This document shows positions 2,120-61,431 of a stretch of 64,000 nucleotides of DNA, in pieces (the first letter of the stretch is position 1; each line of letters begins with the position of its first letter). The position numbers and the translations under genes are program-made. The stretch is from a virus (Duplodnaviria > Heunggongvirae > Uroviricota > Caudoviricetes), in the IMG/VR virus record IMGVR_UViG_3300047409_000308, positions 1-64,000 of that record; one strand, given 5' to 3'. The notes under the pieces are model-generated. The model made no database searches and was not told the origin of the DNA. It worked only from the letters and a program-made list of their open reading frames with translations.

Positions 2120-2975
2120 CGTTGTAGAAACAAAACGGCACCGGGAGACAGCAGGGCGGCAGGCATCAAAGGTCGCCAGAACCTCAACCCCGGCAAGCGT
2201 GGAAGGGCAGATAGTAGTGCCAGGATGGAAGTCCGATTGCAAGTGTACGGCGAGTGCAGCGCCCGTAAGAGGCGAGCATGAGCAGGGTGCCTGAGGCGGC
2301 ATGCGTACTGACAAGCGGCTGAGAATCAGACATCTGGCATGAACGCTGTTCCGGGCAGTGCGGTTTGACTGTCTCATCCATCTACCGGGGATGTATGGCC
2401 CTGGATAGCGGAACACAGAAAGCAAGCGCCTGGGATAGCCCCACGTTGAGAAACGGTTGGGTCTGGTGTACACCCCCAAGTCTCTCTCGCCTTGCAGCCT
2501 GACCCAACGCACAGCAAATCCCGCCATTCGAGGGTATGCGAGAGTACGTCCTCTGCACTCGGCCTCACCTGGGACATCCCCTGCTGTGCTCCACACGATT
2601 CCCGCTTCCTGGCTACCCCTGTTAAAGGTTCCCTGCGGCCCAGGCGGAAGGCGTGCGGTAGTCCGATGAATCAATCGGCTCTGCCCCAATGCGCGAGACC
2701 TCAATTTCAGTTGAGGCCGCTACAGGGGCATTCCAGACGCTATTACAGGCTCACCAAGGCATGAACGATGCTCAGGGTAGGGTCCAAGGGTAGCTGCGCA
2801 GGATGTGGGTGATTGGCAACCGCCCAGGCCAAGGACAAGAGTCCCTTGTTACTCAGCCGGTAATTACATCATGCGTAGGTCGGCGCAAGGCAATGCGCCT
2901 TGAGTGCCTTGTTCGTACAGGGCATTCAAGGGGCATTTCGCCCATAACCAGTAGTCAACTTAGGAGCTACCCATC
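2120..2975 (+). other. ~850-nt GC-rich untranslated leader or candidate structured ncRNA between the promoter and the first gene
   Basis: No ORF with an RBS or plausible composition on either strand. Local hairpins such as caaggc-aatgc-gccttg. The first SD-preceded ATG is at 2976. Confidence 0.3.
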
Positions 2976-3215
2976 ATGACCAAGAAAGTCGCAACTCCCG
3001 CTGTCCCCGCTACCCCGGCTGCTGCCATACCGGGCCTCTCTACCGTCAGCCTCCCCTTCGACCGGGAAACCAAGAACACCTTCCGCTTCAGCGAGGTGTT
3101 GGCCGAGGGCGTGAAGTCCGTCCTCCCCGTAGGCACGATCTACGTCAACAAGAGCGCCTTCGGTGGCGAAGGGGTCGCCGCTCCCGCCTCGTTGACTGTC
3201 ACGCTTGCGTGGTAA
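2976..3215 (+). CDS. Hypothetical protein (79 aa), first gene of the early operon
   Basis: ATG preceded by AGGAGCTACC; Ala/Pro/Thr-rich N-terminus. Confidence 0.6.
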   Translation: MTKKVATPAVPATPAAAIPGLSTVSLPFDRETKNTFRFSEVLAEGVKSVLPVGTIYVNKSAFGGEGVAAPASLTVTLAW

Positions 3216-3352
3216 GAGCCTAGTCGATGACCCCTGCGCTATTACAGGCAGGGGATTCGACTGTGCTTTTCGGCACGGTGCAACATCGCCACAAGGTAAC
3301 AGAAAGTCCCGTAGGGACTGTATGGAGCCGAAGGCGACCACCAGGAGCTACC

Positions 3353-3619
3353 ATGCATATCAAATCCAACGGCCAGCGCACAAGTGCGCTCCAACCCCGC
3401 AGGTTCTTCATCTCCCATCGGCATGAGGATTTCCCCATCGCCTACCTCGGCGGTACGGGCAGGTTTTTCTACCGCCCCGCCATCCCCAACCCCCCGGTGG
3501 AAGTGACATACCGCAAGCGGGAAGTGGATATTTTCGGGCAATTTCAGGCGTCAGCACTGATCCCCCGCAGTGGGGACATCACCGTGTCCCGCCAGCATTT
3601 CGCTACGGTGGCAGCATGA
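3353..3619 (+). CDS. Hypothetical protein (88 aa). Alternative start at 3227.
   Basis: ATG directly follows the AGGAGCTACC motif; in frame with track ORF 3227..3619. Confidence 0.5.
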   Translation: MHIKSNGQRTSALQPRRFFISHRHEDFPIAYLGGTGRFFYRPAIPNPPVEVTYRKREVDIFGQFQASALIPRSGDITVSRQHFATVAA

Positions 3620-3834
3620 GCTTCGCCCCGGAGGTCATTGCCGATTCAAGCGGCAAATTCTGCGGCAACAGCCTGCGCTTCGCCACCCGCGAGGAAGTAG
3701 AGCAGAACGTGCGTGACCTGGAGTTCCGCTGGATGGCGGTGCGCGAGACCCGCGTTGTTGAGTCATCCGACCCGGTGAACTACACCTACCTGCCCGGCAC
3801 GGATGGCAGGCGCACCCTGGAGGCGGCGGCATGA
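3616..3834 (+). CDS. Hypothetical protein (72 aa)
   Basis: ATGA start/stop overlap with the upstream gene. Confidence 0.5.
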   Translation: MSFAPEVIADSSGKFCGNSLRFATREEVEQNVRDLEFRWMAVRETRVVESSDPVNYTYLPGTDGRRTLEAAA

Positions 3835-4067
3835 GCAATATCAGGCAACGCACTGATCCACCAGCAGTGGGGATCACACCTGAGCAAATAGCCCAAGGGG
3901 AGCGGCAATGCCGGGAATACGAAACAGCCCAGTTTGCAGCCCAGTTTGATTGGCTGGAATTCATCCTCGTCGTCTTTTTCTTCTGGGGGTTCGCCCTACA
4001 GGCATTGATCGCATCGATCTTCATTTGCGATTGCGATCGGCAGGATACCGATAGGAGGGATATATGA
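3831..4067 (+). CDS. Hypothetical small membrane protein (78 aa)
   Basis: ATGA overlap; hydrophobic segment 'FILVVFFFWGFALQALIASIFI'. Confidence 0.5.
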   Translation: MSNIRQRTDPPAVGITPEQIAQGERQCREYETAQFAAQFDWLEFILVVFFFWGFALQALIASIFICDCDRQDTDRRDI

Positions 4068-4486
4068 AATTCCGCAACGTTACCCGCGAACAACTCGAAC
4101 AAGCCCTCTATACCACCTCCATCATCCACTACCCGGACCCAAGCCCAGAGAACTATGGCGGCGGCGGTAATTTGATCTGGAAGCGTGCGCCAACCCGCAA
4201 AGGCAATGCGTTTATCGCCACTTTGCGCGTCAAGGACAGCCACAAGGCAGGTGCGCGTCTGTCGGCGCAAGGCAAGCATACCGTCGCCGCTTCCTGGCAT
4301 GCCCACCGGGATTTCTTCCGTACCCTCCTGACCGTCGCCCCGGAGTGCATCATTGACACTGGCTTGTACGGGGCACAACGCTATGCGGGGCTGGAAGATT
4401 TCGAGCAGAAACACCCGGCGACGTATTTCATCAATATCGGCAGCGAGGCATGCCATGTTCGCATCGGCGAACTGTCCGTACTGTAA
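4064..4486 (+). CDS. Hypothetical protein (140 aa)
   Basis: ATGA overlap with upstream gene; GGAG-like RBS ('gatagGAGGgatatATG'). Confidence 0.6.
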   Translation: MKFRNVTREQLEQALYTTSIIHYPDPSPENYGGGGNLIWKRAPTRKGNAFIATLRVKDSHKAGARLSAQGKHTVAASWHAHRDFFRTLLTVAPECIIDTGLYGAQRYAGLEDFEQKHPATYFINIGSEACHVRIGELSVL

Positions 4487-4581
4487 CAGGACGAAACCAC
4501 CCACAGCAGGAAGGCTGTCGCATAGGGTGGTCAGCGGGTATCCGCCCGCTCTGACGAGTCCAACCCAGGAGCTACCGCGCC

Positions 4582-7766: not shown

Positions 7767-8375
7767 ATGGAGGAAACACAGATCAACCGCGAGGAATGGC
7801 TCGGGTGCGTGATGGATGAACTGCGCCCGGTGTTCAAGAAAGTGTGTTTCCCGCTGCCGAAGAACATCCGCGTTACCTGCGGCTTTCCCTCCACCCATGC
7901 CCGCACTGCGCTGAAACGCGCCATCGGAGAGTCGTGGTCTAGCAACGCTTCCGGGGATGGCACGTATGAAGTGCTGGTGTCGCCGGTGGAGGGCGAATCG
8001 GTCGCTGCTGCCGCCATCCTGGCGCATGAATTGTCCCATGTTGCAGCAGGCCACAAGTACGGACACCGGGGACCGTTCGTGACGTGTATTCGTGCAGTGG
8101 GCCTCGTTGATAAACCTACCGCAACCCATGCTGGTCCAATGTTTAAACAGTTCATGGATGGCGTTGTATCGTTATACGGGTCGTACCCGCATGCTTCGTT
8201 GAACGTGGTTCCACTGCGCAAGGTGCAGGGGACAAGGTTGTTGCGCTGCCGCTGCCCCGACTGCGGCTATACCGTGCGGGTGACGATGAAGTGGCTCGAT
8301 ATTGCCGGTCCTCCGCTGTGCCCGAATTTCTCCGGGCACAACGGCAGGGTAGCTCCGGTCAGGATGACGGTATGA
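7767..8375 (+). CDS. Putative zincin-type metallopeptidase (HExxH) with C-terminal Cys4 zinc ribbon (202 aa). SprT/ArdC/DUF2201_N-like.
   Basis: Motif 'AILAHELSHVAAGH'; C-terminal 'CRCPDCG...CPNFSGH'; GGAGAA RBS. Confidence 0.55.
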   Translation: MEETQINREEWLGCVMDELRPVFKKVCFPLPKNIRVTCGFPSTHARTALKRAIGESWSSNASGDGTYEVLVSPVEGESVAAAAILAHELSHVAAGHKYGHRGPFVTCIRAVGLVDKPTATHAGPMFKQFMDGVVSLYGSYPHASLNVVPLRKVQGTRLLRCRCPDCGYTVRVTMKWLDIAGPPLCPNFSGHNGRVAPVRMTV

Positions 8376-8506
8376 ACATCATCAAAATCCTGCTCCTGAT
8401 CGATCTGGTGCTGCTGTATGCCGTGCTGTATCGCATGCGGTGGCTTGCGATATGGAAACCGTGTTTCGATAGCTTGAAAACCTACATGAGAGACAGGCAA
8501 CGGTGA
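8372..8506 (+). CDS. Small membrane protein (44 aa)
   Basis: ATGA overlap with the peptidase gene; one hydrophobic helix 'IIKILLLIDLVLLYAVLY'. Confidence 0.35.
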   Translation: MNIIKILLLIDLVLLYAVLYRMRWLAIWKPCFDSLKTYMRDRQR

Positions 8507-10161
8507 AAGCGACGCTTCAACAACTCATTAACGACTACAACCAGGGGACTACTGCAATGGCAATCAGTACGATCACGGATCGCGCCGCATTCTACGCTTC
8601 CCGCACCGGGGAGCATCTCACGCGACTGCTGTCCATCGTTAGCAAGACTAGCCTCGCCGAATTGAAACAACGCAAGCTCGGCAAGGATGAAATCATCGAT
8701 GCGCTGGATGGCTTTGGCGCGGACACCTTGCTCATGGCCGATAAGATTCTGGCCTCGGGCGGCGGGGGGCAGGAAGGACAAGGGGGACAGCCGGTAGAGG
8801 ATAACGTGGTGGCGGGCGTGGTGAAGGAAATCGGCGGCATCATCACGAAAACGGTGAACGCCCGTGTGGAGCCGGTGGAACTCGCGCTTATCTCGCTCAA
8901 GAACGAGAACATGAAGGTCGTCAAGACCACCAGCGATATCGCCACCGTGCTGAAAGACAACATCGATGCCCTGGCGAAGGACATCAAGGATTTGTCCGAT
9001 GCCTCGGTGGGGCGGGCGGAGTTGCCCGGCTTGATCGGCAAGCACGGCATTTCCGCTGCGGTGTTGAACGCTGCGGTGACGGAGGCGGTGAGTGCAAGGC
9101 TGACCCTCTACACGGCAGACACGGAACCTCTGACTGAGGATGAAATCAAGGCGGGGCAGATTCCCAAGGTTGCAAAGACAAAGGGTGAGGCGAAGCTCGC
9201 CATCCTCGCCAACCGCCCCCGCGTGGTGAAGGTGGTGGATGCGCAGTCCTTGTTCGGCATCGACTTGAAGGATGCCGGGGGCGCACCGCTCCAGGTGGAA
9301 TTGTGGAATGACCCGGACCATGAGCGCGTGAACCCGGATTACGTGTTCGACCCGGAGAACCTGCGCGTCGCCTTGCTGGCGCTGTCGAAAAAGCCTTGCC
9401 GTAACGTGTTTTGCTTCGGTGAAACCGGCACCGGCAAGACCGCTTTTGCGCGGCAGTTGTCGGCCTTGCTGAAGCGCAGGCTTTTCAGGATCAACTTCGA
9501 GAACGGGGCGGATTCCTACAACTTCATCGGCGGGGAGCGGGCAAAGGATGCAAGCACCGTCTATCAGTACGGTACGTTCTCCCTCGGCCTCATGCATCCG
9601 GGAGCGCTGATCCTGCTGGACGAACTGTGCTTTGGGAAGCCTGGGCATCTTGCAGCCCTTCACTCCACCCTGGAAGAAGAAGGCAAGCTCACCATCACCG
9701 AGACCGGAGAGCGGATTGAGCGTGAGGAAGGCGTATGCATCTTCGCTGCCGACAACACCAATGGCACCGGAGACCGCAGCGGGCGCTATGACGGCCTGTA
9801 CACGATGAACTCGGCCTTGCGGCGCAGGTTCTCGTTCTGGATTCGCTTCGAGTACATGAGCCCGGAAGCGGAGACTGACCTTGTGGCAAGGCACGCCAAG
9901 GTCAGGAAGAACGCGGCCAAGGCGGCAGTGGCGCTGATGAATGCGCTGCGGACTGCGGCAAGGGCCGGAAACCTGTCGGATTCTCCCTCGCTCCCACACG
10001 CCATTGCATTCTGCGAACTGGCGGCAGCAGGGAAATCGCCCAGGAAGGCGTATGAAGAAACCATCGTCCTTGCCACGTCTCCGGAGTACGCGGAGAAGTT
10101 GCAGGAAATCTACGTCGCTTCGTTCAACGAATCGTCCTTTGCCAAGGCGATTGCCGCATGA
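8503..10161 (+). CDS. CobS/MoxR-like AAA+ ATPase with a ~245-aa N-terminal extension (552 aa). GTG start at 8503; alternative ATG at 8557.
   Basis: Walker A 'FGETGTGKT', Walker B 'LILLDE'. CobS-type N-motif 'VNPDYVFDPENLRVALLAL'. Sensor/arginine region 'FAADNTNG...RRRFSF'. Confidence 0.8.
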   Translation: MKATLQQLINDYNQGTTAMAISTITDRAAFYASRTGEHLTRLLSIVSKTSLAELKQRKLGKDEIIDALDGFGADTLLMADKILASGGGGQEGQGGQPVEDNVVAGVVKEIGGIITKTVNARVEPVELALISLKNENMKVVKTTSDIATVLKDNIDALAKDIKDLSDASVGRAELPGLIGKHGISAAVLNAAVTEAVSARLTLYTADTEPLTEDEIKAGQIPKVAKTKGEAKLAILANRPRVVKVVDAQSLFGIDLKDAGGAPLQVELWNDPDHERVNPDYVFDPENLRVALLALSKKPCRNVFCFGETGTGKTAFARQLSALLKRRLFRINFENGADSYNFIGGERAKDASTVYQYGTFSLGLMHPGALILLDELCFGKPGHLAALHSTLEEEGKLTITETGERIEREEGVCIFAADNTNGTGDRSGRYDGLYTMNSALRRRFSFWIRFEYMSPEAETDLVARHAKVRKNAAKAAVALMNALRTAARAGNLSDSPSLPHAIAFCELAAAGKSPRKAYEETIVLATSPEYAEKLQEIYVASFNESSFAKAIAA

Positions 10162-10412
10162 GTGCAGGGGTAAAAGAGGGATTGCGCGGGACCGTGCATT
10201 GCGACAGTTGCGGGTGGGATTCGGAACCGGGGGAGGTGTTGAACGCCTGGTTCGACCGGCCCTGCCCGCACTGCGCAGCGCTCCTGATTAACAAAAGCGA
10301 CAAGGCGCTGATCGAGGGGCTCGATGCGGCCATCCGGATTGGGCTGGCCAAAAATTGCAAGCCGGGAGCCGAGGGAAGTATTCACATCGATACAAGGAAA
10401 AACCATGAGTGA
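10158..10412 (+). CDS. Small zinc-ribbon protein (84 aa)
   Basis: 'CDSCGW...CPHCAA'; ATGA overlap with the AAA+ gene. Confidence 0.5.
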   Translation: MSAGVKEGLRGTVHCDSCGWDSEPGEVLNAWFDRPCPHCAALLINKSDKALIEGLDAAIRIGLAKNCKPGAEGSIHIDTRKNHE

Positions 10413-10590
10413 TGTGCTCGGCGTGGAGCGCTGGCGCATGGTGAAAGATGTGCGCAAGTTGGACCGGATTGCCCGGCTAGTAGAGAAAATCGAGGCCGAA
10501 CCCCAGACAGTCATTGAACCTGCTGTCTCCGTGCAACTAGGACGACAGCAGGTAGCCGATGAACTGCGTGCCATTTTGGAAAAGGACTGA
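10405..10590 (+). CDS. Hypothetical protein (61 aa)
   Basis: ATG overlapping the upstream stop; in frame with track ORF 10324..10590. Confidence 0.4.
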   Translation: MSDVLGVERWRMVKDVRKLDRIARLVEKIEAEPQTVIEPAVSVQLGRQQVADELRAILEKD

Positions 10591-10592
10591 GC

Positions 10593-12728
10593 ATGGCAAA
10601 TAAACCAACCACCCCCCTGGGAGCAGTCAGGGGGTTCGAGATCATGAATAGCCTGGGCGATACCATGAGGACGGTGCTGGAGACAAATAAGCCCTTCACC
10701 GAGGACTTCGCCGCAGGTGGGCTGTCGGTAGCATTCAACGGCAATGAAGCGTTCTCGTCCTGGGCGAGGAATGCAGCAGGCGGGATTTCCGGCATCCTCA
10801 ATGCCCCGTCCCTGGCACCGGATGCCCACCTCTCGCGCCATCAAGCGGACCTGTACGTGGGCTATGGACTGCATGAGATGGGCCACATGTGCTATTCCGA
10901 CCACGGCCCGTTCCAGAAGATGAACGAGCGGCAGGGGACGATGGGCGTGGCATTGCTCAAAGCCCTGGAAGACCCGAGGGTGGAGCAGGCGGTGATGCAA
11001 TCGAAGATGGCGGGCAATTCCCGCGCCCTGTTCGAGAACTTGGCCTGCGCCATGTATTCCAACGCCATCACCCAGGGCTATGACGCAAATAGCATCAATT
11101 GGCTGCCTCTAACCCTGTCCTTGCTCGGGCGGGATCGCAGGGGCCAGCATTTCCCGGAGTCAAAGGACATCCGTGCGGCCATGAACCCGGAGAACCTGTC
11201 CCTGGTCGATGAAGCCCTTGCCATGATGGACAAAGCCCCGCTTACCTCTGATGGCACCCAGGACGCCAGAGCGGCAGCGCAGTACATCATCGACAAGCTG
11301 AACCTGCCGCCACAGCCGAACCCGCCACCGCAAGGCAAGGGAAAGGGACAGTCGCAAAAAGGGCCAGGAAAACCCCAGGAAGGCCAAAAAGACGGCACCC
11401 AGGGCGATAACGATGATGGGGAGTGCCAAGGGGAAGGGGACGCAGAAGAAGGCCAGGGAAGCTCTCCTGGGCAGGGTAATGAGGAAGGTGAAGGTCAGGA
11501 TGCTGGGGATGGGAAGGGAGAAAAAGGCAAGCCCGGTGACTATGCCGATGGGGGCGGGGGCAAGGGATATTCCAGGCATGGCTCTGGTGCTAAATGGACC
11601 AAGGTGGACTTGAGCAAAGCCACGCCTAAGCAGGTGGGGCCGGAGCAGGCCATCGATCAGGCTGCAAAGCATGCCAATGCGCAGGCGATACGCTCGGGGA
11701 GTCACTTCGACCCGTATGAATTTCCATCGGCCATTGGCAACGAGTATGACTTCCGCCATGGGAAATCTTATTCTTCCTACTTGCATCATGGTGCGAGCCA
11801 GGAGAAATATGAGCAATTGAAGCGCCGCCTGCCCTCCGACCTGGGTTCCATGCGCCATGCCTTGTGGCGGCTCCTGAACTCACGCGATGAAGCCTATGTG
11901 GACCGCTACCGCGAGGCGGGGCGCTGGGATAATCGCGCCATGCCGAGGATGCTGACCGGAGGCACCTCCCTCTACAAAATGACCACCGAAGTCATGGGCT
12001 TGAGGACAGCGGTATCGATCATCGTGGATGCTTCCGGGTCCATGAGCGGTAACTCAGCGGTCAATTCAGCCTCGGTGTGCATTGCCCTCGCAGAAACCAT
12101 GGAGCAACTCGCCGGGCATGGCGTGGTGTATCAGATCGCCTGCTTCGAGGACTTTGATGGCGGCACACGCGATGGTCAAAATGCCGCTAATGACTTCCTG
12201 CACAAGTTCTCCCTCCGCACAAACTGGCGTAATGCAGGAACGAGCAAAATCAACCACGCCCGCCGCACCCTTGTCCCGCAGGACAAAATGAACTGGACAA
12301 GAAGGCTGAATGAAACCCGCGCCACCTGGGCTGCGAACATTGCCATCTTCAAGGGTTTTAACGACCGGCTGGCGACCTGCCGCGAGGCCATTTCGACCAT
12401 GGCGAACTTCGTAGGCGGGGGCACGCCCGATGCGGCTGGCGTCGGACGCGCGATCTACCATGTGCTCAACCGTCCCGAGCCGAACAAGATCGTGATGGTG
12501 ATTACCGATGGCTGCGGGCAGGAGGATGAAGTCAGGAGCTTCTGCAAGTTCGGTGCCGAGGTAGGGGTGGATGTCATCGGCGTGGGCATTGGCGACACCT
12601 CGGTGCGCAAGGTCTATCCCATCAGCGTCACCGCGAGCAGCATCGAGGCCCTGGGCAAGGCTGCCTTCGGCAAGATGGTGCAGGTGGTGCTCAACAACCG
12701 GCGTAGGCAAGGCCGACAAGCTACCTAG
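10593..12728 (+). CDS. CobT-like protein with C-terminal von Willebrand A (VWA) domain and internal acidic/Gly-Gln-rich low-complexity region (711 aa)
   Basis: MIDAS motif 'IIVDASGSMSG'. Acidic G/E/Q-rich stretch ~aa 235-330. Immediately downstream of the CobS-like ATPase. Confidence 0.8.
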   Translation: MANKPTTPLGAVRGFEIMNSLGDTMRTVLETNKPFTEDFAAGGLSVAFNGNEAFSSWARNAAGGISGILNAPSLAPDAHLSRHQADLYVGYGLHEMGHMCYSDHGPFQKMNERQGTMGVALLKALEDPRVEQAVMQSKMAGNSRALFENLACAMYSNAITQGYDANSINWLPLTLSLLGRDRRGQHFPESKDIRAAMNPENLSLVDEALAMMDKAPLTSDGTQDARAAAQYIIDKLNLPPQPNPPPQGKGKGQSQKGPGKPQEGQKDGTQGDNDDGECQGEGDAEEGQGSSPGQGNEEGEGQDAGDGKGEKGKPGDYADGGGGKGYSRHGSGAKWTKVDLSKATPKQVGPEQAIDQAAKHANAQAIRSGSHFDPYEFPSAIGNEYDFRHGKSYSSYLHHGASQEKYEQLKRRLPSDLGSMRHALWRLLNSRDEAYVDRYREAGRWDNRAMPRMLTGGTSLYKMTTEVMGLRTAVSIIVDASGSMSGNSAVNSASVCIALAETMEQLAGHGVVYQIACFEDFDGGTRDGQNAANDFLHKFSLRTNWRNAGTSKINHARRTLVPQDKMNWTRRLNETRATWAANIAIFKGFNDRLATCREAISTMANFVGGGTPDAAGVGRAIYHVLNRPEPNKIVMVITDGCGQEDEVRSFCKFGAEVGVDVIGVGIGDTSVRKVYPISVTASSIEALGKAAFGKMVQVVLNNRRRQGRQAT

Positions 12729-13743: not shown

Positions 13744-14019
13744 ATGACATTCCATGTGGGAGATCGCGTAAGGGCCATCCATGATGGCGAGGGCGAGGCT
13801 TTCGGCAGGGACTTTCAGGACAAGCGGGGCACGGTCACGGAAATCGAAGGCAACAACTATTGCCGCGTCCGCTTCGACAACATGAACCCGCCGCGAGACG
13901 GTACGGACTGGCGCTGCCGCAACAATGGCCTTGTGCTCATCCACGACAAGGACGAGGAAATGATGCGGGCATTGGAGCACAGCCTACGCAAGCTGTTTCA
14001 GCCCATGGAGGCACCGTGA
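13744..14019 (+). CDS. Small protein, paralog 1 of a 'GDRVR...EGTVTG' family (KOW/SH3-like motif), 91 aa
   Basis: AGGGAGGG RBS; N-terminus 'MTFHVGDRVRAI...RGTVTEIEG'. Confidence 0.55.
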   Translation: MTFHVGDRVRAIHDGEGEAFGRDFQDKRGTVTEIEGNNYCRVRFDNMNPPRDGTDWRCRNNGLVLIHDKDEEMMRALEHSLRKLFQPMEAP

Positions 14020-14021
14020 GC

Positions 14022-14285
14022 ATGTGGACGGTAGGCGACAGGGTGCGCTTTATTACACCGGGCTTGGAATGGACCGGGATGGAAGGAACGGTAACAGGAA
14101 TAATACGTTATGGGTAAAATGCGATAAACATATTTGTGCATATACCTGATCATCCCTGCCCCTATCATGAGAACAACAAGCCACGCGACTGGATTTTCAA
14201 TGACTACAATGTGGAATTGATTGCAACACCGCTCGAAGACGAGCTTACCGTCGCACTCACTCCGCTATTCATGGAGCGCGCATGA
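14022..14285 (+). pseudogene. Paralog 2 of the same family, interrupted by an in-frame TAA at 14115-14117. 31 aa, stop, then 55 aa continuing in the same frame.
   Basis: 'MWTVGDRVRFITPGLEWTGMEGTVTGIIRYG*NAINIF...TPLEDELTVALTPLFMERA*'. The C-terminal part aligns with paralog 3 'TPLGTSLEQELTTAMAPLF'. Confidence 0.5.
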
Positions 14286-14560
14286 AATTTACCATCGGAG
14301 ATAGGGTCAGGTTCAACAACACAGACTATCCGGAATGGGTTGACATGGAGGGGACTGTCACTGGCGCGTTCACCACTACAGCGAGCTTTGTAAAACTGGA
14401 CGGCAAGGTGAATCCAAACTGCATCGGTAATGGACACACAGGAGACTACGCTTTCCAGAACAGGAACCTCACCCCTCTCGGTACATCGTTGGAGCAGGAA
14501 CTCACCACTGCCATGGCCCCGCTGTTTCAGTATTCGGCAATCTCGGAAAAATCCTCATAG
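14282..14560 (+). CDS. Paralog 3 of the 'GDRVR...EGTVTG' family (92 aa)
   Basis: 'MKFTIGDRVRFNNTDYPEWVDMEGTVTGAF'; ATGA overlap with paralog 2. Confidence 0.55.
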   Translation: MKFTIGDRVRFNNTDYPEWVDMEGTVTGAFTTTASFVKLDGKVNPNCIGNGHTGDYAFQNRNLTPLGTSLEQELTTAMAPLFQYSAISEKSS

Positions 14561-25473: not shown

Positions 25474-26343
25474 ATGGAATTATTGACGGTGGCTGAATGC
25501 CTGCGGCTGTACTTGCAGGCGAGGGCTGGACTGATCGTTGACGAGGAACGGGCGCTGATTGCGGTGGAACGGCTTGAAGCGCGCATCGTGGTGGAAGCGG
25601 TAGGGGCGGGACTGTTCGATGCCACGGCCCGCTATGCGCGGCAGCGTGGGATGGAGGTGGCTTCCTCCACGGTGCGGCGGGAACTGGGGGTGCTGAAGGC
25701 AGCCCTGCAATGGGCGTGGAAGTCGGGGAGGATTGCCTTCGTGCCTGCGCTGCATGCGGCCAAGTCGATGCCGCCGAAGCTGCGGGTGCTGAACGATGCG
25801 GAGTTAAAGGCGCTAGTGTCTGCGGCAGAGAAGCAGCCAGTGTGGTTATACAACTTCGTCCTGCTGCTCCTCCTAACCGGACAGCGTAAGTCAGCGGTGC
25901 TGAATCTGCGGTATTTCCAGATCGACCTTAAAAACAGGGTGATTAACTTTCCAGACCCATACATGCCTTTGGCGGAGCGCCGCAAGGGCAGGGGAACGGT
26001 GCCGATGAACGATGAACTGTATGCCCTGCTCAAGCCAGCAATGGAGAACATTGGGTTCGAGCACCTGCATGACTATGTTATCCACAACAAGGGCCAGCGT
26101 GTCTTCCACGTCTATCGGGACTGGGAGAGGATGACCAAGGCTGCTGGTTTAAACGGTGTTACACCGCATGTGCTGCGACATACCGTGGCCACGAACCTCG
26201 TCCGGGATAACGCGAATATCTATCAGGTATCGAAACTCCTGGGACATGCCTCGGTGCAGACGACTGAACGTTGCTATGTCACGCATAATCCGGAGAACCT
26301 GCGGGGGATGATGAACCACGTCAGCGCGAGGGGCAAAGCATGA
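25474..26343 (+). CDS. int: Tyrosine recombinase / phage integrase family protein (289 aa)
   Basis: C-terminal catalytic motifs 'HVLRHTVATNL' and 'LLGHASVQTTERCY' (R-H-R-Y). AAGGAGA RBS. Confidence 0.85.
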   Translation: MELLTVAECLRLYLQARAGLIVDEERALIAVERLEARIVVEAVGAGLFDATARYARQRGMEVASSTVRRELGVLKAALQWAWKSGRIAFVPALHAAKSMPPKLRVLNDAELKALVSAAEKQPVWLYNFVLLLLLTGQRKSAVLNLRYFQIDLKNRVINFPDPYMPLAERRKGRGTVPMNDELYALLKPAMENIGFEHLHDYVIHNKGQRVFHVYRDWERMTKAAGLNGVTPHVLRHTVATNLVRDNANIYQVSKLLGHASVQTTERCYVTHNPENLRGMMNHVSARGKA

Positions 26344-59897: not shown

Positions 59898-60809
59898 TCA
59901 ACTCACACCTGGCGAACCCCAGACTCCTAGCGGGTCGGACACGCCGAATGAATAGCGGGCCCTCGCCTTGTAACGAACATTCCCAGTCTCGAAGTCCCCA
60001 AGCATTTCTGTCTTCAGCGGAACCCTATCGAAATACTTAAGGCCATTTGGGATGTCGGTTTTTATGAACCACCCGTTAGCGTCGGTCAAATAATGGTTGA
60101 TCGTCCACCCATCCGGGATGGAGTTGAGCGACTTCAGCGCATTGATGTCGTTGTTGGCGGTATTCACGCGCAGTTCGGACTTCAAGAGGCGCTGCACGAT
60201 GAACATGTACTCTTTGGGGATGATGAGCTTCTTTGCCTGGCAGGCGATCAGGAGGCCCCGTTCGTCGAGCCAGCCCGCGATCTGGATGATCGCTGCTTCA
60301 AGGCTGGTTTCATTCAGATCGGCTCCGGTGGTTGGCCGGTTGGAATTCACTCCGCCTGAGGTCAATGGGTGCGCAGTGTTGAACAGGGTTACGCCGTCGC
60401 CATAGGTGAAGGCAGCAGTGAAGCCGTTGTTGAGGATGTTGGCTGCAATCACCTGCTTGGTATAGGCCATGCCACGGGCGAGGGCCTTGGTGTAGCGGGC
60501 CGAGAGGCTGTCGTACAGGTTGTCCTCCATGGCCTCCTCGGTGATGGCGAAACCCATGGCGATGGTCTGGTGGGTGTAGCGGGCGGACCAGGCTTCCTGC
60601 GCGTTGTCGTAGGCGATGGCAGCCCCTTCCTGCTTGACTGGAGCGGCACCGAAGCCTGAGAGCTTCAGTTCTTCCTCGAACGAGCGCTCGGAGGTTTCCT
60701 GTTCGTAGATTTCCTTGTCTTCTTCCTCGTACTTCTTGTACTCCAGCCCAAAGAGGGCGTTCAAGCCGGGGAGGAGTTCCTTGAGTAGCTGTGCGCGACT
60801 GATTGCCAT
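59898..60809 (-). CDS. Major capsid protein, lambda gpE-like (Phage_cap_E family), 303 aa
   Basis: N-terminus 'MAISRAQLLKELLPGL' resembles lambda E 'MSMYTTAQLLA'. GGGAGAG RBS. Sits after the decoration-like gene, as in lambda. Confidence 0.65.
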   Translation of the reverse strand: MAISRAQLLKELLPGLNALFGLEYKKYEEEDKEIYEQETSERSFEEELKLSGFGAAPVKQEGAAIAYDNAQEAWSARYTHQTIAMGFAITEEAMEDNLYDSLSARYTKALARGMAYTKQVIAANILNNGFTAAFTYGDGVTLFNTAHPLTSGGVNSNRPTTGADLNETSLEAAIIQIAGWLDERGLLIACQAKKLIIPKEYMFIVQRLLKSELRVNTANNDINALKSLNSIPDGWTINHYLTDANGWFIKTDIPNGLKYFDRVPLKTEMLGDFETGNVRYKARARYSFGVSDPLGVWGSPGVS

Positions 60810-60825
60810 GATTGTCTCTCCCGAG

Positions 60826-61431
60826 TTAGACGCCAGCGGCGATTTGATAGGAGTGGATACCGAAGTTCCACGATACGACAAGCTCCGTGAACGCATCGCC
60901 CACCGTGCTGCCCTGGCCTGGGTTGTTGACGAAATCGATCAAACGCCACGGGAATCCAGCGGTGGTTGCTGTGGTTGCCGCAGCCGCCATCAAGCTCTTG
61001 CCGGTCACGGTCGAGCCGGTCAGGCCGGTAAATCCGGACGTGGCGGAGACATTGACGTTCTCGCCGAGGGCAGTCTGGGGCACGGTGCCATCGGCCTGAA
61101 TCTGGAACAATGCAAACGGATCGTCGATCACATGTCCCAAGGCGTCAGCAGCCACGGTGCTCGCGGGCCAGAAATTGCTGTTGATGAAATAGCGCGTCGA
61201 GCTTGCCTGGGTGAATTGGCAGCCCATGAACACCCCGACCACCCTGGGGCTGGTGCCTACGTCCATCGCCACCAGAGTGCCGGTGGTGGCATCGATGACC
61301 ACCGCCTCACCGTTGAAGATGTTGCTCGAATAAGCCGATGCGATCTTGATCGCCCGCGTCGAACCGGCAAATGGCGTGCCGCCGATCTTGTTGATGGGGC
61401 GCAGGCCGTAAGGCTGGAGGCTGAAAGCCAT
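60826..61431 (-). CDS. Head decoration-like protein, lambda gpD position (201 aa)
   Basis: GAGGAG RBS; beta-rich Thr/Ala/Gly composition; immediately upstream of the major capsid gene. Confidence 0.4.
   Translation of the reverse strand: MAFSLQPYGLRPINKIGGTPFAGSTRAIKIASAYSSNIFNGEAVVIDATTGTLVAMDVGTSPRVVGVFMGCQFTQASSTRYFINSNFWPASTVAADALGHVIDDPFALFQIQADGTVPQTALGENVNVSATSGFTGLTGSTVTGKSLMAAAATTATTAGFPWRLIDFVNNPGQGSTVGDAFTELVVSWNFGIHSYQIAAGV

Follow-up and report, generated by a model that had tools for sequence, protein, structure and literature searches.

A conserved protease, AAA+ ATPase and CobT-like adaptor cassette in the early region of an uncultured tailed phage

The genes cobS and cobT are reportedly among the most cited 'auxiliary metabolic genes' of phages. 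Many tailed viruses are reported to encode CobS/CobT-like pairs, for which no function has been demonstrated (PMC8651126, PMC11288001), as an earlier note on the DNA described here had also said, and our literature search turned up no experimentally determined role for either phage CobS/CobT or phage SprT-like proteases. MoxR-vWA ternary systems sometimes carry peptidase effectors (Kaur et al. 2020, PMC7159879), and phage Bas54 requires a MoxR ATPase gene to defeat DS-28, which is predicted to be a defence system (preprint 10.1101/2025.11.20.689424). A derivation of the name 'cobaviruses' from cobT was considered and is wrong; the name comes from their B12-dependent reductase.

We analysed a window of 64,000 nucleotides from an uncultured phage (IMG/VR record IMGVR_UViG_3300047409_000308), which contains a locus of six ORFs, all on the plus strand (Table 1). 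The ORFs are real and their junctions agree with the translational coupling described previously, with ATGA and GTGA overlaps, one 8-nt overlap and one 2-nt gap; the 44-aa ORF has ATGA and GTGA overlaps with its two neighbours. In a megablast search of cultured phages, the region had no match. The earlier note had entitled the locus a five-gene module while giving six ORFs, and only three of the six are conserved. Homologues of the 44-aa, 84-aa (Zn-ribbon) and 61-aa ORFs were sought in related loci and detected in none, which removes these ORFs from the module. Even the nearest relatives have these slots vacant or filled by other, unrelated small ORFs. L006 has nothing in the 44-aa slot, where L007 has a soluble ORF of 60 aa and L008/L009 a two-TM ORF of 63 aa, both unrelated to the 44-aa ORF. 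The 84-aa slot holds an unrelated Cys-rich ORF of 63 aa in L006 and a Lys/Glu-rich ORF of 80 aa in L007/L008, and it is vacant in L009 and in L004-type loci. The conserved unit is three genes, encoding the protease, the ATPase and the CobT-like adaptor, and not five or six.

The same window encodes a 3390-aa polyvalent protein with Pfam matches to NUDIX, HATPase_c and, weakly, ART-PolyVal (ADP-ribosyltransferase). This ORF was first taken for a virion RNA polymerase of N4 type, a reading given up when the Pfam matches pointed to a polyvalent protein, and tblastn with its N-terminal third returned no match. The capsid encoded in the window resembles those of phages infecting marine and freshwater bacteria and cyanobacteria.

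Table 1. Positions of the six ORFs of the locus and of motifs and segments within the three conserved gene products (numbering of the window)
Feature	Position	Strand	Remarks
SprT/Wss1-like protease ORF	7767..8375	+	202 aa; predicted minimal zincin metalloprotease; first conserved cassette gene
Protease HELSH	8025-8039	+	residues 87-91
Protease GHRG	8061-8072	+	includes the third His
Protease C-terminal Zn-ribbon-like tail, CPDC	8253-8264	+	
Protease C-terminal Zn-ribbon-like tail, Cys185	8319-8321	+	
44-aa ORF	8372..8506	+	hydrophobic; variable filler between protease and ATPase
MoxR/CobS-like AAA+ ATPase	8503..10161	+	552 aa, GTG start; second conserved gene
ATPase N-terminal extension	8503-9237	+	Gly/Gln linker at 8758-8787
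ATPase Walker A, GETGTGKT	9418-9441	+	G306-T313
ATPase Walker B, LLDE	9613-9624	+	D373/E374
ATPase sensor-1, ADNTN	9748-9762	+	N418
ATPase Arg finger within RRRF	9820-9831	+	R442
84-aa ORF	10158..10412	+	two CxxC pairs (10200-10211, 10263-10274); plausible Zn ribbon; lineage-specific filler
61-aa ORF	10405..10590	+	88 aa if the start is 10324; similar to nothing; lineage-specific filler
CobT-like VWA adaptor	10593..12728	+	711 aa; third conserved gene
Adaptor gluzincin-like N-domain	10593 to ~11306	+	HEMGH at 10872-10886 (residues 94-98), LEDPRVE at 10965-10985 (residues 125-131)
Adaptor linker, disordered, G/E/Q/K-rich	~11307-11597	+	residues 239-335, ~97 aa
Adaptor 'shaft'-like segment, GRWDNR...	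11919-11936	+	GRxDxR
Adaptor VWA MIDAS, DASGS	12027-12041	+	residues 479-483
Adaptor MIDAS, GGTPD	12417-12431	+	T611
Adaptor MIDAS, ITDG	12501-12512	+	D639

The first conserved gene had been described as an HExxH peptidase, and its product does carry HELSH, together with one CxxC and a third invariant Cys. Residues H87, E88, H91 and H100, corresponding to HExxH and a third His ligand, are invariant in 57 sequences, and HExxH is intact at 53/53 loci examined. The Pfam SprT-like family (PF10263) did not match the window protease; it matched 3/8 relatives weakly (best E 0.003), and among the 120 homologues listed, 2 had a precomputed PF10263 match. The best fold matches of the protease include Wss1 and Spartan.

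The product of the second conserved gene matches Pfam AAA_5 (E = 1.2e-9; 38.7 bits, cut-off 22) and, weakly, CbbQ_C, and its PHROG match is phrog_249, 'porphyrin biosynthesis' (1.8e-39). Searches of the PDB aligned it to the midasin AAA region (2.8e-27), CobS (5.8e-18, query residues 246-512) and NorQ (3.6e-13), and CobS is its closest homologue among solved stand-alone ATPases. The AAA_5 score and the alignment of solved CobS thus bear out its description as a CobS-like AAA+ ATPase. They also bear out the N-terminal extension of ~245 aa, since the solved CobS alignment begins only at residue 246. The Walker A, Walker B, sensor-1 and Arg-finger residues listed in Table 1 are unchanged across 12 diverse homologues. 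The N-terminal extension has no Pfam match, and a Pfam search of the corresponding ATPase regions in ten lineages recovered no family. A SAP/HeH-like reading of the extension, for which hhalign gave a probability of only 38% against motif sequences, is offered as a lead only.

The third conserved gene encodes the adaptor, which matches Pfam CobT_C at E = 1.5e-7 (31.8 bits, cut-off 21) and barely reaches the cut-off for Pfam CobT (26.2 against 26.1 bits). Its MIDAS is complete (DxSxS...T...D) and conserved among homologues, and both the VWA MIDAS and the long G/E/Q-rich insert attributed to it were recovered. An acidic linker of this kind is ordinary in CobT and no oddity (preprint 10.64898/2026.07.21.739949). 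In most relatives the adaptor gene consists of two ORFs. The assignment of the ATPase and the VWA protein to the phage CobS/CobT-like pairs, within the MoxR AAA+/VWA class, is supported.

The adaptor N-domain also carries a zincin motif that had been overlooked, with HEMGH followed by LEDPRVE. Among the best-matching cluster representatives, 144/147 have HExxH; the family comprises at least 10,315 clusters at 50% identity (E<=1e-30). In the window adaptor the site (HExxH...ExxRxE) appears to be competent. HExxH is degenerate in the adaptors of L007-L009 and Pseudomonas phage hairong and in a Kistimonas copy, and adaptor catalysis would therefore be dispensable in those lineages. MAFFT placed S81-M-A-L-R85 of Brucella CobT, the sole genuine CobT examined, whose solved N-domain has an M48-like fold and no HExxH metal site, opposite the adaptor HEMGH. 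Comparison of the adaptor N-domain profile with the single Brucella CobT_N sequence by hhalign was not significant, so this correspondence rests on the MAFFT alignment and on spacing. The N-domain had no match in the PDB by sequence and profile search, and Foldseek with its structural model likewise found none in a PDB library extending to 8 April 2026, which CobT entries may postdate. In the prediction, the order of its secondary-structure elements is that of the published CobT_N (preprint 10.64898/2026.07.21.739949). The SprT-like protease and the CobT-like N-domain, compared by hhalign, gave a probability of 10% and are thus not demonstrably paralogues.

The resemblance to CobS and CobT raises the explanation already published for viral cobST (PMC8651126), in which a viral CobS-CobT would join host CobN and raise the supply of cobalamin, which a B12-dependent ribonucleotide reductase, for instance, could use; in that case the protease would be an unrelated neighbour. 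The Pfam CobT and CobT_C and the PHROG 'porphyrin biosynthesis' matches are in keeping with this explanation, as are the position of solved CobS as the nearest stand-alone ATPase homologue, the CobT-like domain layout and shaft-like motif of the adaptor, and a capsid like those of aquatic phages. Hosts of some such phages may make B12. However, the ATPase scored 65.6 bits against the NCBIfam CobS equivalog TIGR01650, over residues 273-487 only (cut-off 558.55), and the adaptor 12.4 bits against the CobT equivalog TIGR01651 (cut-off 759.05), so that both scores lie 8- to 60-fold under the cut-offs. A scan of the window's large ORFs found no cob genes and no NrdJ (class II ribonucleotide reductase), no ORF has the size of NrdJ, and the polyvalent protein is the only ORF of CobN size. 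The host might itself supply a CobN. A search of genome contigs for a close prophage copy that would point to the host yielded only distant pairs, at 27-32% identity. Related pairs occur in 219/5426 complete E. coli genomes, always on plasmids (phage-plasmids), and also in CPR bacteria. To our knowledge, E. coli has no CobN, and the hosts of E. coli phage-plasmids as well as CPR bacteria lack the aerobic cobalamin pathway. Further arguments against a cobalamin role are that the adaptor retains a protease motif missing from Brucella CobT and that the tight linkage of the protease would be left unexplained. The earlier note had held that a standard cobaltochelatase in a cobalamin context would overturn its reading of the locus; no such context was found, and the equivalog cut-offs were missed. 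We consider the cobalamin explanation unlikely. The cassette is most likely an ATP-driven motor-adaptor remodeller or protease, and not a cobaltochelatase.

A scan of viral contigs with a single ATPase sequence recovered only 2 loci, and alignments were needed as queries. In a large uncultured phage clade, the protease gene lies directly upstream of 60/62 distinct ATPase genes, and three further exceptions were found in the clade besides this count. An AAA-seeded set, which partly overlaps the set of 62 ATPases, has the protease in 63/69 loci, at distances of ~16-470 nt; most protease-ATPase gaps are below 100 nt. Whether the peptidase always accompanies the pair had been left as a question, and unlinked peptidase and Zn-ribbon genes elsewhere had been named as evidence against the module. 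The peptidase proved tightly linked inside this one clade and unlinked outside it. CobST-like pairs without the protease are found in many phages and plasmids and also in close relatives (L104, L116 and L118). The protease is found without a CobST-like pair in R5C-like phages, and for 18 distinct IMG/VR peptidases the downstream DNA is free of an ATPase gene over at least 2.5 kb. At least 144 of the 164 cultured-phage records with the protease belong to genera without a CobS-like match, a genus-level count that includes actinophages.

The loci that have both protease and pair all share a downstream primase-helicase and therefore represent one lineage. Protease adjacency has essentially one evolutionary origin, and common descent could explain it. 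It is accordingly a serious possibility, though one to which we give less than even weight, that the protease gene and the CobST-like genes belong to the replication module but work independently, side by side through inherited gene order, with the protease acting alone, for example as a SprT/Spartan-type enzyme on DNA-protein crosslinks. The wide occurrence of each without the other and the single lineage that has both are what independence would predict. Nevertheless, the adjacency has outlasted divergence to 39% identity in the ATPase and ~21% in the adaptor, the split of the adaptor gene, and the full turnover of flanking and intervening small ORFs, and the gaps have usually stayed short.

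Pairs stand beside replication genes in at least six sampled contexts, a count that is not corrected for kinship among the contexts. The primase-helicase lies downstream of the cassette in the window clade, a Cobavirinae phage has the pair near DNA polymerase and primase/helicase genes, and DnaE is encoded near the pair in Cyrano, L100, L103 and hairong. The order in S-PM2 is gp46, the pair, then gp45-gp44. The lone protease family sits among polymerase, clamp-loader-like and UvrD genes. Auxiliary genes of nucleotide metabolism also cluster in replication modules, and the neighbourhood argument is therefore compatible with a cofactor role as well.

The locus had also been said to recall MoxR-VWA conflict systems, a resemblance that found no support. 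PADLOC recognised no defence system, its output being limited to weak P-loop matches of the ATPase, with none of the other proteins matched; the ATPase scored 16 bits against bpMoxR (cut-off 27); and no VMAP, beta-propeller or FtsH-like third component was found in the cassette neighbourhood. A related explanation is counter-defence or host takeover, in which the motor and proteases would inactivate a host protein, of immune or housekeeping function, once the VWA adaptor had captured it. The early-operon position of the cassette would suit such a role, and so would the presence of a polyvalent protein in the same window, as polyvalent proteins are known from conflicts between phages and their hosts. 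The Bas54 MoxR ATPase gene offers a precedent (preprint 10.1101/2025.11.20.689424), but the Bas54 ATPase is absent among the homologues listed. The cassette resembles no known defence or anti-defence family, and its strong conservation over very different hosts and its fixed replication-module position fit a core replication task better, which makes a counter-defence role decidedly unlikely.

We tentatively propose, at somewhat under an even chance, that the three-gene early cassette is a motor-adaptor-protease system that remodels, and probably cleaves, a protein target at replicating or incoming DNA. The proposal draws on computed gene order, conservation, motifs, folds and gene neighbourhoods, and from these we infer complex formation, protease activity, a protein target and a link to replication. 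By homology with CobS-CobT, NorQ-NorD and CbbQ-CbbO, the ATPase would form a hexameric motor. The adaptor would dock on it through its N-domain, with the 'shaft' segment entering the pore, and its VWA/MIDAS domain would capture the target, which ATP hydrolysis would remodel through the flexible acidic linker. The target would be a protein, remodelled and probably cleaved, rather than a corrinoid to be metallated, because the adaptor has what looks like a competent zincin site and a second zinc protease is encoded directly upstream. Phage replication modules are a recurrent setting for the pair and for the protease family alike, and replicating or incoming DNA would therefore be the most likely arena. 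The cassette may thus serve early in infection in removing or processing a DNA-bound or replisome-associated protein of host or phage.

A broader and more speculative reading, which we regard as rather improbable, is that viral and plasmid 'cobST' genes in general are not B12 genes and encode an ancient ATP-driven, MIDAS-targeted metalloprotease or remodeller at the replication forks of mobile elements. Cellular CobT would then be a derived, dead offshoot, and the window clade would have recruited a SprT-like protease to give a prokaryotic-virus counterpart of p97-SPRTN. Possible tasks at the fork are the clearing of DNA-bound roadblocks or crosslinks and the takeover or processing of replisome components. 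More generally, an alternative to a B12 role is testable because HExxH, missing from the one genuine CobT examined, is present in nearly all sampled viral CobT-like proteins, the pairs are set in replication modules, and some of their hosts are without CobN. If such an alternative is true, B12-related virome annotations would need revision and phages would be credited with an AAA+-coupled protease among their replication tools. The most complete version from which to start is the protease-ATPase-adaptor cassette in the window clade.

Compared with known systems, the cassette shares a MoxR and vWA core with the MoxR-vWA ternary conflict systems. It differs from them in lacking a third component of the VMAP, beta-propeller or FtsH kind, and in being phage-encoded, whereas the ternary systems belong to multicellular bacteria. 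With p97/Cdc48 and SPRTN/Wss1 it shares an AAA+ motor paired with a zinc protease of putative SprT/Wss1 fold in a setting probably linked to replication; p97/Cdc48 belongs to another AAA+ clade, and the likeness in pairing is one of analogy. In NorQ-NorD, CbbQ-CbbO, RavA-ViaA and midasin, as is proposed for the cassette, a motor hexamer works with an adaptor that has a MIDAS and acts on a client protein to remodel it, and NorQ, CbbQ and midasin are sequence matches of the phage ATPase. Their clients are metalloenzymes, Rubisco and pre-ribosomes, whereas the phage cassette has two protease domains and no client candidate; we know of no zincin domain in their adaptors.

The viral 'cobST' genes of T4-like cyanophages, SSU5-like phage-plasmids, CRP-810-type phages, Cobavirinae and haloarchaeal tailed viruses constitute the same two-gene pair, located in replication and repair modules. 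Their CobT-like HExxH is intact where checked (the S-PM2 'peptidase' S-PM2p122, Cyrano, and loci L001 and L002, the copies of Roseobacter phage CRP-810 and Cobavirinae). They differ from the window pair in sharing 20-32% identity, in an order that is often CobT then CobS, in having a SprT-like protease next door in none of them, and in ATPase N-terminal extensions that are unlike and in some cases Zn-finger-like. In the CobS-CobT motor and adaptor of aerobic cobaltochelatase, which act with CobN, a MoxR/chelatase-class ATPase gene adjoins an adaptor gene, as in the phage. CobT has the same succession: the N-domain (helix, three strands, helices) is followed by an acidic disordered linker of ~90 aa, then by the shaft-like segment and a VWA domain that bears a MIDAS. 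The phage ATPase differs in its 245-aa N-terminal extension, and the phage pair is set beside a SprT-like protease gene and has no CobN/cobalamin context. Where the Brucella CobT N-domain has S-M-A-L-R, the phage adaptor has HExxH...E.

The block at 7767-12728 holds six ORFs on the plus strand, each lying where the earlier note had placed it. Junctions overlap by ATGA at 8372, GTGA at 8503, ATGA at 10158 and 8 nt at 10405; the remaining one is a 2-nt gap (10590/10593), and the gene after the stop at 12728 begins 2 nt downstream. A simple consensus scan detected no credible plus-strand terminator or sigma-70-like promoter within the block. The three long ORFs, encoding a SprT/Wss1-like protease, a MoxR/CobS-like ATPase and a CobT-like VWA protein (the adaptor), have many homologues and are therefore genes rather than chance ORFs. 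Long reverse-strand ORFs overlying the block are unsupported and are expected at 59% G+C.

Positions of the features discussed (window coordinates unless a residue range or another record is named)
Feature	Position	Strand
SprT/Wss1-like protease, 202 aa	7767-8375	+
44-aa ORF	8372-8506	+
MoxR/CobS-like ATPase, 552 aa	8503-10161	+
ATPase core	residues 246-512	
84-aa Zn-ribbon-like ORF	10158-10412	+
61-aa ORF	10405-10590	+
CobT-like VWA protein, 711 aa	10593-12728	+
HEMGH of CobT-like protein	residues 94-98	
LEDPRVE of CobT-like protein	residues 125-131	
Linker of CobT-like protein	residues 239-335	
Shaft-like GRWDNR motif	residues 443-448	
MIDAS elements DASGS, GGTPD, ITDG	residues 479-483, 609-613, 637-640	
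Three tandem ORFs with GDRVRF...EGTVTG	13744-14019, about 14000-14120, 14282-14560	+
Tyrosine-integrase-like gene (phrog_1) and major capsid protein, given together	25474-26343 (+), 59898-60896 (-)	
Polyvalent protein, 3390 aa	32485-42657	-
N-terminal ATPase motif, locus L004	7461-7640	
ATPases with Zn-finger-like start, loci L090, L091, L094	4683-5918, 7614-8801, 7644-8885	
Distant CobT-like VWA protein + AAA_5 ATPase, Parcubacteria contig L102	13347-14774	
S-PM2p122, Synechococcus phage S-PM2 (L173)	2354-4576	
Plasmid pair, NZ_AP027904.1	17072-20511	

Within the large uncultured phage group that contains the window (the clade), the conserved unit is three genes. Seven full-length ATPase homologues were identified at 48-73% identity; in all six loci read (the contigs of four of these homologues and two IMG/VR contigs) the protease, ATPase and CobT-like genes were accompanied by an opposite-strand primase-helicase. 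A protease-seeded search gave 80 viral loci: at about 48% identity or more, ATPase and CobT-like genes lay immediately downstream in nearly all, and at 42-47% neither was present in most (flanks up to 7 kb). An ATPase-seeded search added 69 loci, with the protease directly upstream in 63; three end at a contig edge, and three (L104, L116 and L118) have the ATPase and a CobT-like match without the protease, the CobT-like ORFs of L104 and L116 being complete with HExxH present. After deduplication, the protease stood upstream of 60 of 62 distinct clade ATPases, and the ATPase downstream of 77 of 104 distinct peptidases, being clearly absent for 18. The Zn-ribbon and other small ORFs, which the earlier note had counted as module parts, are not conserved: the 44-, 84- and 61-aa ORFs have no homologues in the sampled loci, and in the closest relatives their slots are empty or hold unrelated small ORFs.

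The 202-aa protein matches PHROG 6361 (9e-37) and is 37-42% identical to phage genes named 'SprT-like protease' or 'transcription elongation protein SprT' (~164 cultured phage records). Residues H87, E88, H91, H100, C163, C166 and C185 are invariant in 57 homologues, and Pfam SprT-like gives a weak match in some relatives only. On these grounds we class it as a putative minimal zincin of SprT/Wss1-like type whose tail resembles a Zn ribbon, any sub-family assignment being provisional.

The 552-aa product belongs to the AAA_5 (MoxR-class) ATPases; its Walker A and B motifs, sensor 1 and Arg finger do not vary among 12 diverse homologues. Its core aligns to solved CobS and better still to the midasin AAA module (5.8e-18 vs 2.8e-27), and NorQ and CbbQ likewise align. 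The N-terminal extension of ~245 aa reported previously is real; all relatives have extensions of 190-330 aa, poorly conserved in sequence and matching no Pfam family. In L004 and ~55 related loci the N-terminus carries a conserved motif of ~55 aa (LSLIPLxxLNAxL..G....DKxxAI..V..LI..G.ITLDQVK), in register with SAP/HeH DNA-binding motifs (hhalign probability 38%, E 3e-4), a hint at possible tethering of the motor to DNA. CobS-like ATPases of other lineages open with a short Cys/His-rich, Zn-finger-like segment (for example KIKCEICGAETHIIVTHLKSDH; ROS_MUCR match weak, E 0.0011), whereas the window has a separate Zn-ribbon ORF downstream of the ATPase.

The 711-aa protein matches Pfam CobT_C and barely reaches the Pfam CobT cut-off. 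It shares the layout of cobaltochelatase CobT (preprint 10.64898/2026.07.21.739949), in which an N-domain is followed by a disordered linker of ~90 aa, a 'shaft' that reaches into the CobS pore, and a MIDAS-bearing VWA domain. The acidic insert that had been singled out is thus present, but as a CobT family feature and not an oddity. Overlooked at that stage were the HEMGH and subsequent LEDPRVE of the N-domain. Most clade members carry this gene as two ORFs 0-12 nt apart, the N ORF encoding zincin and linker, the C ORF the VWA part; HExxH is kept in 42 of 45 complete members, being lost in L007-L009 only. It also occurs in Roseobacter phage CRP-810, a Cobavirinae phage, E. coli phage Cyrano, S-PM2, five bacterial or plasmid copies and four metagenomic homologues. 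In 26 diverse homologues H94 and E95 never vary, and H98, E126 and D127 are close to invariant. When 1.84 billion cluster representatives were searched with a profile, 10,315 clusters matched at E<=1e-30; among the 147 best-matching, newly retrieved representatives, which are those closest to the profile and not a random family sample, HExxH lay within the first 260 residues in 144 and DxSGS was present in 142. S-PM2p122, a CobT-like protein with HEVGH, IEDARIE and DWSGS, is annotated 'peptidase' and adjoins cobS between gp46 and gp45; this label, a mis-annotation according to the literature, reflects a real intact motif. Solved Brucella CobT, retrieved from the PDB, has S-M-A-L-R at the HExxH position and retains the downstream glutamates (MAFFT alignment). 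Pseudomonas denitrificans CobT is not known to carry HExxH either. The evidence for the apparent loss of the site in cellular CobT is a single solved sequence, compared in a single alignment.

Linkage of the peptidase to the ATPase/CobT-like pair, as the earlier note proposed, holds inside the clade and breaks down outside it. Dinoroseobacter phage R5C and contigs resembling it have the protease family but no CobS/CobT-like gene; there it lies among genes for DNA polymerase A, a clamp-loader-like ATPase, dCMP deaminase and UvrD helicase, and at least 144 of 164 protease-bearing cultured-phage records belong to genera without any CobS-like match. Conversely, the pair lacks the protease in CRP-810, the Cobavirinae phage, an SSU5-like E. 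coli phage, S-PM2 (T4-like cyanophage), Pseudomonas phage hairong, two metagenomic elements and eight of nine bacterial genome or plasmid loci, the ninth having no CobT-like match. Every locus with protease and pair also has the primase-helicase, and the adjacency thus traces back to what is essentially a single origin. Protease and pair have stayed together while identity fell to 39% for the ATPase and ~21% for the adaptor, while the adaptor gene was split and while all surrounding genes turned over, a persistence suggestive of a functional link without proving it. That the protease is merely a neighbour of the pair, judged independently of the other readings, is a real minority possibility.

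At least six sampled contexts, which may not be mutually independent, place the pair within a module for replication or repair. It stands beside the primase-helicase and an exonuclease in the window; beside DNA polymerase and primase/helicase in the Cobavirinae phage; between DnaB/DnaG and DnaE on a 104-kb contig; next to DnaE in a TrfA/ParA element, Cyrano and (with DNA ligase) hairong; between gp47, gp46 and gp45, gp44/62 in S-PM2; and next to endonuclease V in CRP-810. SprT-like proteases without the pair show the same preference. Phage cobST pairs are already known, and PGAP already labels such genes 'CobT-related'. In an incomplete literature library, where absence is no proof of novelty, we found nothing on the clade's conserved protease-ATPase-adaptor cassette, on the near-universal intact zincin motif of the sampled mobile-element CobT-like proteins as against one genuine CobT, or on the pair's recurrent replication-module setting.

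The pair might instead serve B12 synthesis via host CobN, following the published idea that viral CobST hijacks this subunit (PMC8651126). By NCBI's equivalog models the pair is not a cobaltochelatase: the ATPase scores 65.6 bits against a CobS cut-off of 558.55, and the CobT-like protein 12.4 against 759.05. No window ORF other than the 3390-aa polyvalent protein could be CobN or class II ribonucleotide reductase, and no cob genes were found among the ORFs scanned. E. coli is not known to make the corrin ring or to have CobN. Yet 219 of 5426 complete genomes of this species contain a related pair, which in every case sits on a plasmid (~110 kb among those listed) and never on the chromosome; PGAP names its members 'cobaltochelatase CobT-related protein' and 'AAA family ATPase', and these pairs are 95-100% identical to Cyrano. 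A homologue also occurs on a Parcubacteria contig, where a distant CobT-like VWA protein and an AAA_5 ATPase adjoin a diversity-generating retroelement (bAvd and reverse transcriptase) and an integrase. The scores, the missing CobN and cob genes and these two occurrences weigh against CobN hijacking, at least as a general explanation; for this phage we regard service to B12 synthesis as unlikely.

Elsewhere in the window, the polyvalent protein matches Pfam LPD38 (2.5e-34), NUDIX (1.2e-15), HATPase_c and, weakly, ADP-ribosyltransferase ART-PolyVal; its N-terminal third has no tblastn match in cultured phages. The three small tandem ORFs just upstream of the primase-helicase are local paralogues, given their shared motif. 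The major capsid protein is 70% identical to that of Planktothrix phage Pag-Yong1 and Synechococcus phage MinM2 and 60% to that of Pelagibacter phage HTVC023P; these three phages have nothing that corresponds to the early region. A protease copy identical to that of the window is recorded on a JGI contig of 74,418 bp, presumably its source.

Since the adaptor has retained a protease site and the cassette encodes another zincin besides, its client would be a protein, remodelled and probably cleaved, with DNA replication as the most likely setting; we give this reading not quite an even chance. A role in counter-defence, which overlaps with this reading, has a precedent in a phage that depends on its MoxR ATPase gene to withstand a predicted defence system, and we consider it distinctly improbable. 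The solved CobSTN, NorQD and CbbQO systems share a general scheme in which a hexameric motor is bound by one or two adaptors, docked via the N-domain and a pore-inserted shaft, and the MIDAS face holds the client (preprint 10.64898/2026.07.21.739949; PMC7159879). The cassette ATPase and adaptor would adopt the same type of architecture, with the adaptor's MIDAS face presumably holding the client as in those systems.
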